Shown in pieces: positions 25,653 through 33,105 of a DNA stretch of 52,522 bases. Both the position numbers and the translations under genes were made by a program. The notes under the pieces were generated by a model. The model was not told where the DNA came from. It saw only the letters and a program-made list of their open reading frames with translations, and ran no database searches. Each line of letters begins with the position of its first letter. Position 1 is the stretch's first letter. The DNA is from Omnitrophica WOR_2 bacterium RIFCSPHIGHO2_02_FULL_48_11 (GTDB taxonomy: Bacteria; Omnitrophota; Gorgyraeia; Zapsychrales; GWA2-47-8): contig MHGP01000035.1 of the NCBI GenBank assembly GCA_001805615.1, positions 10,222 through 62,743 of the forward strand, given 5' to 3'.

Positions 25653-27020
25653 TCACTGGCCAGTGTTTTGTTCCAAATAATTACCCACACGGGCACTGGT
25701 CTTACCTCTCTCACTTATGGCGTATTGTTTTAGGGACGGCTCCGCCACAACTTCTACCAATTGCGCCCTGCGTAATTTTTCAGCGATAAGGGACAGCTCC
25801 TGGACCGGCACATTGATCTTCTCGCTGATGTCGATTAAATCAAGTTTCCCGTCCGCGTAGGCAATAAAATCCATCATGTTCCTGACTTGCTCAGCCGACC
25901 CCTTGGCGCTGATTGTCGGATAGAGGCCTCTTTTCCCCAGCTGCGGCTCACCCAAACACGTCATTTTATATTTTTTATTTTTTTCCAATGCCTCGATACA
26001 CTCTTGCAGCACTGCAAATGATCCGGCCAATCCTTCCGCCGAAATAAGTTTTAAATTATCCAAGGACGTATGATATTCGGGATACGTTCCATATTTGCTG
26101 CGCATAATGGAAGCCACCGGCAGGTCAGCTCCGACGGAACAATACTGCCGTTCATCGCTGCCGCGATTCAAAAATGAATACTTAATAAAATCTGGGTGTC
26201 TCAATTTCAACACATTCAGCGCGACCTTGTCCGCCAATGTGTTCCCTAGCCGGGAAGGAAGATACGAATAACAACGCTCATCGCCGACGCAGGTCACATT
26301 AAAACCGGCAATGATGTTTTGTTTCATGTGTTGCAAATTTTTGCTCAGATAAGTGACCGAGCCGATCGTTTCCGGAATAAAAACAATCCGATAGGTATAT
26401 TCCCGCGGTTCACTTAAAAGCCATTTGGCCAGAAACGTGGTGACCACCGGGCCGGAAAGTTCATTATTGGCCATAGAAGGATGGCAAACGTAAGTGGAAA
26501 GAAAAATCTCCTTTTGTGATTGGCCCGGGATGATCAATTCACCATAGGTGAGCGAGCCATCCTTGAGTTCGGAATCGATCACGACTTTATACTTCCCCTT
26601 TTTCAGCTTCTGCCGATCCTTATGCGCCAGGCAAAATCCCCACCGCTCTGCATAATAAGAAGTGACATACGGTATGGCATTGGGTAATTTCTTATCCGAA
26701 TAAAGATGCTCTTGGAGCTCAGCCAGCGTAACGGTTTTATTGACCGGGGTCGCATAACCAACGACGTGGAGGTTATTCTTCTTAAAATCAATGACCTTCT
26801 TTCCCTTGGCATCACTGACATAGGCGTCCTGGATATTCCATTCTTTGGGAACCGTCCAATCAAACACCGGCGTTCCCGACGGGACTTCCTGCACGGTTAA
26901 AGGAATGTGCTCTTGCAATATTTTCAGGGTCGCCCGGACACCGTTTCCCGTAATGCTGCGGCATATCGGGAGCAACCGCTCCGCCAATTTGTACATGGCT
27001 TTTCCTGTCATAGTGTTCAT
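25653..27020 (-). CDS. Aminopeptidase-like (M28-fold, DUF4910-type) polysaccharide-locus protein with C-terminal winged-helix segment
   Basis: 455 aa. The layout and segments such as YRIVFIPETIGS match my recollection of the COG4310-type family that accompanies AAC(3)-like genes in glycan loci. Unverified without an HMM search. Confidence 0.55.
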   Translation of the reverse strand: MNTMTGKAMYKLAERLLPICRSITGNGVRATLKILQEHIPLTVQEVPSGTPVFDWTVPKEWNIQDAYVSDAKGKKVIDFKKNNLHVVGYATPVNKTVTLAELQEHLYSDKKLPNAIPYVTSYYAERWGFCLAHKDRQKLKKGKYKVVIDSELKDGSLTYGELIIPGQSQKEIFLSTYVCHPSMANNELSGPVVTTFLAKWLLSEPREYTYRIVFIPETIGSVTYLSKNLQHMKQNIIAGFNVTCVGDERCYSYLPSRLGNTLADKVALNVLKLRHPDFIKYSFLNRGSDERQYCSVGADLPVASIMRSKYGTYPEYHTSLDNLKLISAEGLAGSFAVLQECIEALEKNKKYKMTCLGEPQLGKRGLYPTISAKGSAEQVRNMMDFIAYADGKLDLIDISEKINVPVQELSLIAEKLRRAQLVEVVAEPSLKQYAISERGKTSARVGNYLEQNTGQ

Positions 27021-27889
27021 ATCAAACTCTGTTCTCTTAAAAACTCCGCAACAAGTTCTTTGGATTCTTCTAACTCATTTTCAATGGAAGCCGGATCAAC
27101 CGCCGGGCCCTTGACCAACAACCAAGGATCTTTTTGCGCCGCGTTTTTGGCAAATTCGAAATACCAATCACAAACAATGGAAAAAATTTTAATTTTTCCC
27201 AGCGGGGCGGATTTCCATAAACCGGCTTCTTCCGCCATTTTCCCGACGGCCTGCGTGCTGGGGTAAGAATTATCCGCGCGGATCCTGACATTGTAAACCC
27301 AGCGCACCGGGACCAATTCTCCTCCCTGTTTTATGAAACCTTGAAAAAGCTTGTCATACCGGTAAGGCGCCTTGAGAAGCCAATCGATGTGATGAACGAA
27401 AGGCAGCCAGACCGGGCCTATCCCTAAATTTAAAAGTTTCGCGTCACTCTGGGCCAGTCGGGAAAGAAAGGAACCCTCTCCATAGCTCGTCGGAGGAAGG
27501 TCCTTGATAAACTCAGCGCATCGCCTTCCCTTGCACGCGACAGACACCATCGGATCCAAAGATCTTTTGACGCCAGCTTGTTTGAGGACAAAATTCGGAA
27601 ATGTCCCAACGTCAGCAGGTGTCGCTTGCGGATCGAAAACCGCCGGTTCGCTGGCTGTGCCTTTACCAAACGTGTACGAAAAAGCAGGAACGATGAGCGT
27701 GCCATCTTTTCCGATCACGTCCCAAATCGCATTATAAAAAAGCTCGCAAAGTTCATCCGCGCTTTTGATATTCTCCGGTGGATGACCGATCAGGCCAAGG
27801 CTCGTGCTTACGTAAACCGTGTCTGCTTTTTGAATTCCCGCTTCCGTAAGGGCGTTTATGATATCCTGTTTTGAATAATTTCCCTTCAT
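27017..27889 (-). CDS. AAC(3)-family N-acyltransferase-like protein
   Basis: 290 aa. The N-terminal pattern (..ALTEAGIQKADTVYVSTSLGLIG..) and overall length resemble aminoglycoside 3-N-acetyltransferase-fold proteins. ATGA overlaps on both sides. Confidence 0.55.
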   Translation of the reverse strand: MKGNYSKQDIINALTEAGIQKADTVYVSTSLGLIGHPPENIKSADELCELFYNAIWDVIGKDGTLIVPAFSYTFGKGTASEPAVFDPQATPADVGTFPNFVLKQAGVKRSLDPMVSVACKGRRCAEFIKDLPPTSYGEGSFLSRLAQSDAKLLNLGIGPVWLPFVHHIDWLLKAPYRYDKLFQGFIKQGGELVPVRWVYNVRIRADNSYPSTQAVGKMAEEAGLWKSAPLGKIKIFSIVCDWYFEFAKNAAQKDPWLLVKGPAVDPASIENELEESKELVAEFLREQSLI

Positions 27890-28149
27890 CGCTTGGCTTT
27901 AACCCTCGTTTCCACAAGATCGACCAGCCCTCCTACCGTACTCAAACCCTCCAGATTCTCCAAATGCTCGGGCTGCAGTTCTATGCCGAATTCATCCTCG
28001 AGCGACATGATGAGCTGGATCATACCGAAGGAATCGATATGCCCGGTCTCAAGGTAGCGGTAGCTGAATATTTTTTTCTTATCTTCGGGGAGCTTTCCTC
28101 TTTTCTCCAAAAAATCCATGATCACCGTTAAAATTTTTTCTCTGTTCAT
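27886..28149 (-). CDS. Acyl carrier protein
   Basis: 87 aa, acidic, with a phosphopantetheine-attachment-like motif GHIDSFGMIQLIMSLEDEFG. Confidence 0.8.
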   Translation of the reverse strand: MNREKILTVIMDFLEKRGKLPEDKKKIFSYRYLETGHIDSFGMIQLIMSLEDEFGIELQPEHLENLEGLSTVGGLVDLVETRVKAKR

Positions 28150-31578: not shown

Positions 31579-31593
31579 AACTTGGATCCCTTT

Positions 31594-33105
31594 TTAAACC
31601 AAATGCATCTTTTTAGCCTTATAATCTTCGCGAAGGCTTTCTCTCAATTTAAATTTCTGTACCTTGCCCAGTTCGTTTTTGGGGATCGCCTCAATGAAAA
31701 CAAAATCAACGGGCGACTGATAATCCGCCAGATTAGCCAGACAAAACTTCCGCAGTTCTTTCTTTTCGATCTTCTCATCGGAAACGATCGCCGCCAAGGG
31801 GACTTCTCCCAAATATTTATCCTCCACGCCCACCACCGCGCACTCTTTCACCCCTTTAAACCGCAGCAGCACATTCTCGATATCTCCGGGATACAAATTG
31901 ATCGCCCCGTATTTTATGACATCTTTTTCCCGGCCGCGGTAATAGAGAAAACCGTCCGTATCGATATATCCCACGTCTCCTGTCTTGAAATATTCTTCCC
32001 AAAAACTCTGCTTCGTCGCTGCTTCATTCTTGTAATATCCGCTGTAGAGCGTGATCGTCTTGACGCTGATCTCCCCTTCCTGGCCAAACGGCACAGGGCG
32101 GTTGTGCTCATCCAAAATCTTGACATCCACATAAGGCAACGGCTCCCCCACGCTGTCCAGCTTCGTATTGCCCTCTTGAAATTCAATACTGGTGGCGATA
32201 CCGATCTCGGAGGCCCCATAACATTCGTAGAACCGGCATTTGACCCTCTCCAAAAAACGCTTTTTTGTTTCTAATTTCAACGTGTAGGACGAAGAGACCA
32301 ATTTCTTAAGGGATCTTATGTTGATATTTTCTCTTTCCAAAAAATCCAGCAGCGCTTCGATCTGATTCGAAACGACGATGGCAAAGGTGACGCCTTCTTT
32401 TTCCACCCGCTCCACCCACAAAGTAGGAGAAAACCTCGGCAAGATCACGCCGGTCGCCCCGATCAACAAAGGCAGAATGGACATCCGCATCCCCATCGAA
32501 TGATACATCGGCGTACTGACCACGGTGACGTCGTTTTCAGTAATTTCATAAAGTTCTTGGGCGCCGTTGATGGATCGCGCGATCTTTGTCGCCTGCGAAA
32601 AAACAATGGGTTTGGGCTGGCTCGTCGAACCTGACGTTAAAGTAATGATAAACGGCGCCTCCGGCTCGACGTCGCTTTCTTGAATCGTCGAATCTCCGGT
32701 CTCCTGCATCAGGTCTGCGAATTTCGGCAGAGGAAAGATCTTAAAATTTTCCGCCAGCTGTTTTTTACCCGGCAGGAGGTTCTTTTCTACGAGTATCAAC
32801 TCGATGTCCGTCGCCTGAGAAAGGCTTTTTATCATCTCATCCTGGTAACTCGGCATCAGAGGAACCAGGACTGCCCCCAGATACGCCGCGCTCCAGAAAA
32901 GCAAAGAAAATTCCAAGGCATTGTTGGAGATAACCCCGACGTGCGTCCCCGGCTTTACACCGATGGACCGCAGATATTCACTTAACTTAAAAGACACGTC
33001 CGCGGTCTGCTGATACGTGAGGACGATATCTTCAAACTTATAAGCCGTCTTCTCCGGAGACTTACGGACATTATTAAGGAACAAATTATAAAGATTTTTT
33101 TTCAT
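31594..33105 (-). CDS. AMP-dependent synthetase/ligase (acyl-adenylate-forming enzyme)
   Basis: Adenylation motifs LTSGSTSQPKP, YKTGDVGYIDTDGFLYYRGREKDVIK, and a C-terminal PKNELGKVQK lysine motif. Confidence 0.9.
   Translation of the reverse strand: MKKNLYNLFLNNVRKSPEKTAYKFEDIVLTYQQTADVSFKLSEYLRSIGVKPGTHVGVISNNALEFSLLFWSAAYLGAVLVPLMPSYQDEMIKSLSQATDIELILVEKNLLPGKKQLAENFKIFPLPKFADLMQETGDSTIQESDVEPEAPFIITLTSGSTSQPKPIVFSQATKIARSINGAQELYEITENDVTVVSTPMYHSMGMRMSILPLLIGATGVILPRFSPTLWVERVEKEGVTFAIVVSNQIEALLDFLERENINIRSLKKLVSSSYTLKLETKKRFLERVKCRFYECYGASEIGIATSIEFQEGNTKLDSVGEPLPYVDVKILDEHNRPVPFGQEGEISVKTITLYSGYYKNEAATKQSFWEEYFKTGDVGYIDTDGFLYYRGREKDVIKYGAINLYPGDIENVLLRFKGVKECAVVGVEDKYLGEVPLAAIVSDEKIEKKELRKFCLANLADYQSPVDFVFIEAIPKNELGKVQKFKLRESLREDYKAKKMHLV

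Follow-up and report, generated by a model that had tools for sequence, protein, structure and literature searches.

A recurrent gene module with an acyl carrier protein, an AAC(3)-fold protein and a DUF4910 protein in an Omnitrophota glycan cluster, and its possible role in N-acyl exchange on amino sugars

The window discussed in this paper is a stretch of 52,522 nucleotides, taken at its full length, from Omnitrophica WOR_2 bacterium RIFCSPHIGHO2_02_FULL_48_11 (contig MHGP01000035.1), and the whole of it is one long minus-strand cluster for glycan biosynthesis of about 50 kb. Our subject is a cassette of seven minus-strand open reading frames (ORFs) at 25653-33105, which code for an AMP-ligase of the ANL type, a family 2 glycosyltransferase (GT2), a radical SAM enzyme (rSAM), an oxidoreductase of the Gfo/Idh/MocA family (Gfo), an acyl carrier protein (ACP), a putative transferase with the fold of the AAC(3) enzymes (AAC3 in what follows) and an M28-like protein of the DUF4910 family (Table 1). 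This group of genes recurs in other genomes and, in part, in phage contigs, and we discuss its possible role in the exchange of one N-acyl group for another on a sugar.

The cassette and its proteins

The original prediction for this DNA, made from the letters alone, had described eight contiguous genes; they are indeed contiguous, and every coordinate proved exact when the ORFs were checked, the number being seven, both as listed and as spanned. Pfam agrees with the domain identities predicted for all seven, including the hidden Markov model matches to PF02522 and to DUF4910/DUF2172, and the ATGA overlaps said to join most of the genes are found at all five junctions from GT2/rSAM through AAC3/DUF4910, among them the junction of AAC3 with the ACP gene directly upstream of it. 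The ligase and GT2 genes are 15 bp apart, and another 15 bp lie between the stop codon of the neighbouring pseI gene and the start of the ligase gene. The same sequence is found in public assemblies, including a contig of a groundwater metagenome-assembled genome (MAG), GCA_001805525.1.

The sole sizeable intergenic gap in the region is one of 132 bp after the DUF4910 gene. It holds a perfect sigma-70 consensus promoter with a run of six G in its spacer, and a methyltransferase gene (24771-25520) follows directly downstream. This sequence marks the 3' boundary of the cassette, towards the methyltransferase genes, and the cassette therefore closes a transcription unit begun further upstream with the pse genes.

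Table 1. Features of the cassette and of its surroundings (positions in the window)
Feature	Size	Position	Strand	Evidence
ANL AMP-ligase	503 aa	31594..33105	-	AMP-binding 213 bits, AMP-binding_C 57 bits (Pfam)
GT2 glycosyltransferase	349 aa	30529..31578	-	Glycos_transf_2 (Pfam)
Radical SAM enzyme	417 aa	29279..30532	-	Radical_SAM (Pfam, 55.9 bits)
Gfo/Idh/MocA NAD(P) oxidoreductase	378 aa	28146..29282	-	GFO_IDH_MocA N- and C-terminal domains
Acyl carrier protein	87 aa	27886..28149	-	PP-binding PF00550, 26.6 bits (cut-off 20.8)
AAC(3)-fold transferase	290 aa	27017..27889	-	PF02522 Antibiotic_NAT, 100.1 bits (gathering threshold 25; profile positions 19-229 of 232)
DUF4910/DUF2172/HTH_47 protein	455 aa (447 aa from next ATG)	25653..27020	-	DUF4910 359.8 bits, DUF2172 132.1 bits, HTH_47 88.2 bits (Pfam); match to 3K9T
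Sigma-70 consensus promoter, TTGACA-16-TATAAT		25614..25641	-	12/12 consensus positions
Two SAM (S-adenosylmethionine) methyltransferase genes, one with fused GT2		23198..25520	-	Pfam
Pseudaminic-acid pathway, complete: PseB, PseC, PFTS-motif protein, PseF, PseG-PseH fusion, PseI		33121..40255	-	Pfam, NCBIfam
Legionaminic-like set: NeuB, hydrolysing 2-epimerase, PglD-like acetyltransferase, CBS-dehydratase, aminotransferase, cytidylyltransferase		41507..48295		Pfam, NCBIfam

The fold of AAC3 is that of Antibiotic_NAT: its AlphaFold2 (AF2) model has a predicted local distance difference score (pLDDT) of 91.4, and the best 50 Foldseek matches listed from the PDB are all Antibiotic_NAT proteins (TM-scores 0.69-0.82; AAC(3)-IIIb, -Xa and -IVa, BA2930, FrbF and YokD), to whose family the identity is 17-23%. 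The family motif, TxPhiHPhiAE, supplies a threonine, a histidine base and a glutamate (PMC8956665). In the window protein it is replaced by PFVHHID (P163 to D169), in which H166 aligns with the catalytic histidine of AAC(3)-IIIb and -IVa, aspartate stands for glutamate (D169) and proline for threonine (P163); all three residues are invariant in 18 members of the clade. Members of the family that have nothing to do with resistance are known (FrbF, YokD and BA2930; PMC8956665). We also considered an AAC(3) resistance gene and rejected it, the gene being embedded in a glycan operon and all NCBIfam AAC(3) models staying far below their cut-offs (NF033082 is the best, with 58.8 bits against 270).

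The DUF4910 protein matches PDB 3K9T over residues 3-425 (E=2.6e-119). The latter binds a single zinc through His189, Asp195 and His324, and has Ser191 and Pro225 in place of the catalytic Asp and Glu of M28 (PMC4000134). The window protein keeps H180, S182 and H317, and Asp195 is replaced by Asn186, followed by Glu187, both of which are at least 90% conserved in a set of 12 close homologues.

All the core motifs of ANL enzymes are present in the ligase, namely A3 (TSGSTSQPK), A5 (YGASE), A7 (FKTGD), A8 (GREKDVIKYGAINLYP) and the lysine of A10 (PKNELGK). Its A4 region, TPMYHSMGM, is of the acyl/aryl-CoA-ligase type, and one does not meet there the FDxS of amino-acid-activating domains (nonribosomal peptide synthetases, NRPS, and DltA), whose aspartate binds the alpha-amino group; the substrate may thus plausibly be a carboxylic acid and not an alpha-amino acid. 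We propose that the ligase would load a non-amino carboxylic acid on the ACP, whose predicted phosphopantetheine serine lies in GHIDSFG. The nearest solved relatives of the ligase (FadD13, MenE, oxalyl-CoA ligase, 4CL and the LgrA A-domain; E about 1e-48) are generic and tell us nothing informative about its specificity. The loading of D-alanine or another amino acid, in the manner of DltA and DltC, was weighed because N-alanyl nonulosonic acids (NulOs) exist; given a ligase without FDxS and weak DltC matches, an alpha-amino acid is unlikely.

Solved structures are of little help for the two remaining redox or radical enzymes. Those closest to Gfo (3V5N, 7D5M and 3DTY) are deposited just as "oxidoreductase" and are uninformative as to its function. 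The rSAM has a cysteine-rich N-terminal region, the CX3CX2C motif at C104/C108/C111 (CNLKCTYC) and a C-terminal Rossmann-like domain that matches PF22674 C2185-like_N in precomputed annotation and, weakly, PglD_N and CoA_binding in Pfam; the PglD_N/C2185-like_N type of domain is otherwise found on sugar-nucleotide enzymes. Its AF2 model (pLDDT 89) finds generic rSAM cores alone in Foldseek (TMq at most 0.43), no subfamily emerged from this or from a sequence search of the PDB, and the NCBIfam matches are all far below their cut-offs.

Recurrence of the module in genomes and phage contigs

The same seven genes are found together in relatives whose AAC3 is 82% (L007 and L008) and about 50% (L009) identical to that of the window. 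A scan of metagenomes anchored on the AAC3 clade gave 80 loci at 34-51% identity, and 13 of these have at least 5 kb of flank on both sides (the full loci). The ACP is found in all 13 and the ligase in all but one (12); 11 contain DUF4910 and 10 contain Gfo, and rSAM and GT2 are less frequent, at 6 loci each. The orders and strands of the genes are permuted between loci, and this argues for selection on their co-localisation. Moreover, every relative that clusters with the window AAC3 has an ACP gene directly next to it. The cassette is a real module and no chance arrangement.

The company it keeps is that of amino sugars. A Campylobacterales MAG has the ligase, an FkbM-type methyltransferase, Gfo, ACP, AAC3 and DUF4910 beside a PglB/di-N-acetylbacillosamine locus; a Rhodospirillales MAG (L012) has GT2, rSAM, a B12-binding rSAM, ACP, Gfo, ApbA, ligase and AAC3 beside PseB and PseC; and in the cultivable Pseudoalteromonas sp. 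SS15 (GCA_049257195.1, L174) the whole set lies in the flagellin-glycosylation island, between flagellin/FliD/Maf/FliS genes and pse genes. With the phage contigs described below, the set is thus seen beside three amino-sugar pathways (pseudaminic acid, PglB/di-N-acetylbacillosamine, and a phage 4,6-dehydratase/aminotransferase). The gene between Gfo and ligase varies: it codes for an ApbA/PanE-type 2-ketoacid reductase in 5 sampled loci and for an FkbM-type O-methyltransferase in 1, and either of these in the sister loci points to a hydroxy-acid. GT2 adjoins rSAM in L007, L009, L012, L174 and many metagenomic loci, and the two are fused in P0210, P0211, P0219, P0232 and the phage contigs L175 and L176.

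A second scan was anchored on DUF4910 and covered the best 80 loci, one per species-level genome, at 57-71% identity; the genomes belong to archaea and to many phyla of bacteria. In 45 of them DUF4910 has an AAC3-like ORF no more than 300 bp away, which as a rule is the gene just upstream in the same orientation, and in 33 a NeuB-like gene lies within 10 kb. The pair of AAC3 and DUF4910 also follows an otherwise complete Pse pathway in Brevibacillus (L018) and Lysinibacillus (L023). In these hosts, as in others, the pathway already has an N-acyltransferase of its own (a GNAT in Brevibacillus, a formyltransferase in Lysinibacillus, GNATs in Pseudoalteromonas, and PseG-PseH in the window, where each of the two NulO pathways encodes an N-acetyltransferase), and for this reason a free amine must come from de-acylation.

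The two proteins are also joined physically. About a tenth of the best DUF4910 matches are fusions with PF02522, and the closest 50%-identity representatives of the window AAC3 are mostly 500-700 aa long, with the AAC3 domain followed by a DUF2172/DUF4910-like domain. The latter has lost the zinc ligand His317, EYHTSLD having become GYLTDLD or the like (L107, 5030-6973; L123, 9947-11818), and its appearance is that of a pseudo-enzyme, used to dock or to bind a substrate. Several of the loci with the long form (L094-L173) have a canonical DUF4910 gene nearby, which, together with the loss of His317, suggests a hetero-complex.

As for the spread of DUF4910 itself, its matches fall into more than 8000 clusters at 90% identity, and proteins 57-71% identical to that of the window are found in methanogens, Woesearchaeota, candidate-phyla bacteria, Firmicutes, Acidobacteria and Proteobacteria (L014-L093). 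Conservation of this unusual degree speaks for one of two things, a very strong constraint or frequent horizontal transfer along with the glycan loci.

Two viral contigs carry part of the set. Both L175 (Logan SRR10686841, about 3300-12200) and L176 (IMGVR_UViG_3300025829_000001, 5-10261 of the locus) have the ligase, Gfo, ACP, a GT2-rSAM fusion, a left-handed beta-helix (LbH) acyltransferase and an HMW1C-like glycosyltransferase; to these are added a DegT aminotransferase, DnaB and tail genes in the first, and a 4,6-dehydratase and a TylF-like methyltransferase in the second. Neither AAC3 nor DUF4910 is found in the two contigs, and a search of viral contigs with the AAC3 clade gave no match. 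Gfo accompanies ligase and ACP even in these two contigs. The sub-module built around the acyl carrier is therefore portable and can pair with another N-acyltransferase fold. DUF4910 is missing exactly where the amine would be newly made, by dehydratase and aminotransferase, and not already acetylated. These copies suggest a phage-encoded N-acylated amino sugar, possibly for the glycosylation of virion or host proteins.

A proposed N-acyl exchange, its precedents and its rivals

We think there is about an even chance that the cassette works as a module for N-acyl exchange on a sugar of the 2-acetamido/4-amino type. The ligase would adenylate a small non-amino, probably hydroxylated carboxylic acid and thioesterify it onto the 87-aa ACP, and Gfo would then modify the carrier-bound acyl group or help to make it, as GT2 and rSAM may do in this lineage and as ApbA or the methyltransferases, where present, may do in others. 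DUF4910, as an M28-like mono-zinc de-N-acetylase acting together with AAC3, would strip the N-acetyl group left on the sugar by the standard pathway. AAC3 in turn, probably in complex with DUF4910, would use its His/acid dyad to move the acyl group from the phosphopantetheine arm of the ACP to the freed amine, which would make it an acyl-ACP:aminosugar N-acyltransferase. The acceptor here is most likely pseudaminic acid or a nucleotide-linked precursor of it, the adjoining Pse pathway being the likely source of the sugar. The catalytic steps, their order, the acyl donor and the acceptor are all inferred from folds, motifs, co-localisation, fusions and a phenotype in Campylobacter jejuni. The fuller version, in which the AAC(3) fold takes its acyl group from the carrier and not from CoA within a DUF4910 complex that replaces the N-acetyl group of a NulO, and in which the portable set of ligase, Gfo, ACP and the GT2/rSAM pair, common to bacteria and phages, builds an undescribed acyl group, possibly hydroxylated, methylated or glycosylated, is more tentative, and we would put it below an even chance.

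The phenotype concerns Cj1295, which belongs to the same family as the window protein (PIRSF015244/DUF2172/DUF4910; PMC3068675, PMC6321876) and whose neighbour Cj1296/7 is an AAC(3)-family gene (PMC3025981, PMC5135748); we link the window to both through the family assignments of these papers. In C. jejuni NCTC 11168, as in the window, the pair stands beside pse genes with methyltransferases nearby. A knockout of Cj1295 published in 2010 abolished Pse5(2,3-di-O-methylglyceroyl)7Ac on the flagellin and left Pse5Ac7Ac in place (PMC3068675), and Cj1295 was proposed to cleave the C5 acetamido group (PMC3068675; reused in PMC7099621). It was thus too pessimistic to say, as the original prediction did, that the aminopeptidase-like partner has no assigned role: a homologue is genetically required for pseudaminic acid with a 2,3-di-O-methylglyceric acid group (DMGA-Pse; PMC3068675). 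The genetic outcome, an N-acetyl group of pseudaminic acid replaced by an acyl group derived from a hydroxy-acid, is the one that we propose for the window. C. jejuni differs in that its genes are not reported to have Gfo, rSAM or GT2 as partners and in that Cj1296/7 appears to be dispensable. Its acpP-type carrier genes presumably go with loaders of the FabH and HAD types, not with an AMP-ligase.

The structure paper of 2014 already counted an aminosugar N-acetyltransferase and an ACP among the conserved neighbours of DUF4910, and suggested transacylation or de-acylation (PMC4000134). Around CA_C2195, the protein of 3K9T, the Clostridium acetobutylicum genes CA_C2186-CA_C2199 include NeuB, a cytidylyltransferase, an aminosugar N-acetyltransferase, an ACP and Maf (PMC4000134, Table 2), and the function of CA_C2195 was proposed from this context alone (PMC4000134). 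The locus differs from ours by an ATP-grasp ligase and a fusion of acetyltransferase and HAD instead of the AMP-ligase, and no Gfo/rSAM/GT2 trio is listed in it; neither this locus nor that of C. jejuni is among the best 80 of our DUF4910 scan. In the group II flagellin islands of Aeromonas a set of ACP, AMP-synthetase, 3-oxoacyl-ACP reductase, LuxE and LuxC lies between pse genes (PMC7874193). Five genes of the Aeromonas type follow AAC3 and DUF4910 directly in Brevibacillus sp. SYP-B805 (L018); they differ from the window set by a short-chain dehydrogenase/reductase, LuxC and LuxE in place of Gfo, rSAM and GT2, and the ligase is a distant one (53 bits, phmmer).

Two better known pathways help to see the logic. 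Butirosin receives its 4-amino-2-hydroxybutyric acid (AHBA) side chain through the ACP BtrI, the ligase BtrJ, BtrK, BtrO/V, the transferase BtrH and BtrG: the acid is assembled while bound to a small ACP, which then hands it to the amine of a sugar or aminocyclitol, and an amide-cleaving enzyme takes part. The folds differ (an ATP-grasp loader, a BtrH that is not Antibiotic_NAT, a gamma-glutamyl cyclotransferase as BtrG), the acceptor is an aminoglycoside, and the cleavage removes a protecting group after the transfer, whereas in our proposal it would free the acceptor amine before. LpxD-type LbH enzymes give a precedent for an acyl-ACP donor in the N-acylation of nucleotide sugars, with long-chain 3-hydroxyacyl groups from fatty-acid synthesis; their fold is unrelated to that of AAC3, and it is an LbH transferase that holds the position of AAC3 in the phage module.

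What is already known, then, is a NulO modification linked to DUF4910 and the presence of ACP genes in NulO loci. A literature search found no biochemical study of these proteins, and as far as we could find there is no description in the literature of a core of ligase, Gfo, ACP, AAC3 and DUF4910 with optional GT2 and rSAM, nor of the phage version or the apparently inactive DUF4910-like domain on AAC3. The genomic tie of the AAC3 clade to ACP and DUF4910 has not been described for any characterised Antibiotic_NAT member.

Several observations weigh against the exchange that we propose. The threonine that stabilises the tetrahedral intermediate in Antibiotic_NAT is a proline in our clade, and the characterised members of the family are all users of acetyl-CoA (PMC8956665). 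One of the three zinc ligands in the window DUF4910 protein is Asn, not Asp, and 3K9T is without the catalytic Asp and Glu of M28 (PMC4000134). The two C. jejuni variants studied both had Cj1296/7 out of frame and still produced the new acyl group (PMC3068675, Table 1), because of which the role of the AAC(3) fold as the transferase is not secure. Within 3 kb of DUF4910 the AMP-ligase is present in just 13 of the 80 genomes and a detectable ACP in 9. The window cassette has no ApbA or FkbM gene, and the hint about the acid from the sister loci is therefore not directly transferable to it. Gfo/Idh/MocA enzymes and PglD_N-like domains, finally, usually act on sugars or sugar nucleotides, and for this reason Gfo and rSAM may modify the sugar and not the acyl chain. 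The sequence of steps first suggested for this cassette thus stands in part only: an acid loaded on the ACP and then used for N-acylation of a sugar is favoured by the conserved gene content, above all that of ACP and ligase, with the reservation just made about AAC3, and tailoring by oxidation and radical chemistry fits the frequencies of Gfo, rSAM and GT2 in the full loci and their presence in both phage contigs, which is not proof.

In another reading AAC3 would be an ordinary N-acetyltransferase that uses acetyl-CoA or another acyl-CoA and works with DUF4910, and ligase, ACP, Gfo, rSAM and GT2 would do something else in the same glycan, such as adding an O-linked substituent (acyl or lipid) or modifying a sugar independently. 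The donor used by the characterised relatives and the C. jejuni result speak for this, as do the AAC3-DUF4910 pairs, most of which have no detectable ACP or ligase, and the phage contigs, in which the other genes occur without AAC3. We nevertheless consider it unlikely, since the ACP is there in all the full loci of the clade, usually immediately upstream (and here coupled by ATGA), since the association of AAC3 and ACP outlasts extensive shuffling of gene order, and since the fold that replaces AAC3 in phages includes users of acyl-ACP such as LpxD. One could also imagine that DUF4910 is itself the transacylase, trading the N-acetyl group for the new acyl group or moving the latter over from the carrier, and AAC3 an auxiliary, for transient protective acetylation or as a scaffold. 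Transacylation was, as said above, suggested from gene neighbourhoods (PMC4000134), cj1295 is still treated as a putative transferase in a survey of 2026 (PMC13130089), Cj1295 suffices for DMGA-Pse with Cj1296/7 off (PMC3068675), and an identity of about 70%, which holds across phyla and even from Bacteria to Archaea, implies that its role in catalysis is under tight constraint. This idea has to face the invariant His/acid dyad of the AAC3 clade, the fused proteins in which it is the DUF4910-like domain that lost zinc ligands while the AAC3 domain is intact, and the phage sets that manage without DUF4910, and we regard it as improbable. That the cassette has nothing to do with sugar N-acylation, being an aminoglycoside resistance gene with its neighbours or a part of a siderophore, lipid or RiPP (ribosomally synthesised and post-translationally modified peptide) pathway, seems to us scarcely credible: there are superficial matches to AsbD of petrobactin synthesis (ACP, 31 bits), to the SPASM maturases of RiPPs (rSAM) and to AAC(3) resistance models, all far below curated cut-offs, whereas the genes have overlapping codons inside a 50-kb glycan cluster, their relatives lie in flagellin-glycosylation, PglB and NulO loci, and no NRPS, polyketide synthase or precursor-peptide genes were seen beside them. 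Siderophore, lipid and RiPP pathways were accordingly set aside.

The N-acyl groups carried by NulOs and diamino sugars on flagella, S-layers, capsules and lipopolysaccharide are varied, and they decide recognition by antibodies, phages and lectins. To our knowledge, few of the enzymes that install groups other than acetyl, formyl and acetimidoyl have been identified. If the N-acyl exchange were confirmed, DUF4910 would have a biochemical function, acyl-ACP would join the donors known for the AAC(3) fold, the Cj1295 phenotype of 2010 would be explained, and one would have a modular toolbox with which N-acyl pseudaminic and legionaminic acids could be made by chemoenzymatic synthesis. From the copies in phages there is a hint that viruses apply the same chemistry to their own glycans or to those of their hosts.

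The surrounding glycan genes

The two NulO pathways that had been placed upstream of the cassette are both real (Table 1). The PseI ORF (33121-34245) overlaps that of PseG-PseH (34130-35626) by 116 bp; its true start is probably an internal ATG, because identical contigs are annotated with a later one (346-353 aa against 374). Two large ORFs between the NulO genes, at 36377-38107 (576 aa) and 40289-41503 (404 aa), belong to no Pfam family, and both are candidates for NulO transferases. The first matches the "PFTS motif polysaccharide biosynthesis" model, but only weakly, its 31 bits being well short of the cut-off of 100.

On the other side, the pair of methyltransferase genes is kept in L001-L006 and missing after DUF4910 in the 82% relative L007. 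It stands outside the conserved core, and O-methylation of the acyl group or of the glycan is a possible role. Further downstream come a YfhO-like membrane protein, heptose genes, a split transketolase, C-methyltransferases and more radical SAM enzymes. The minus-strand segment at 13168-19844, with the N- and C-terminal halves of the transketolase as separate genes, an APH-like kinase, a family-less protein of 208 aa, a GmhA-like SIS protein, a bifunctional PfkB-kinase/cytidylyltransferase and epimerases, reads as a pathway for a heptose or branched sugar, and it is also kept downstream of the cassette in L007.

At the far end, the minus-strand gene at 50-2161 codes for a B12-binding radical SAM protein of 703 aa, which matches with 289 bits the one inside the Rhodospirillales module (L012), and a weaker relative of it sits between GT2 and ACP in L107. 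This protein may belong functionally to the cassette despite a distance of 23 kb.

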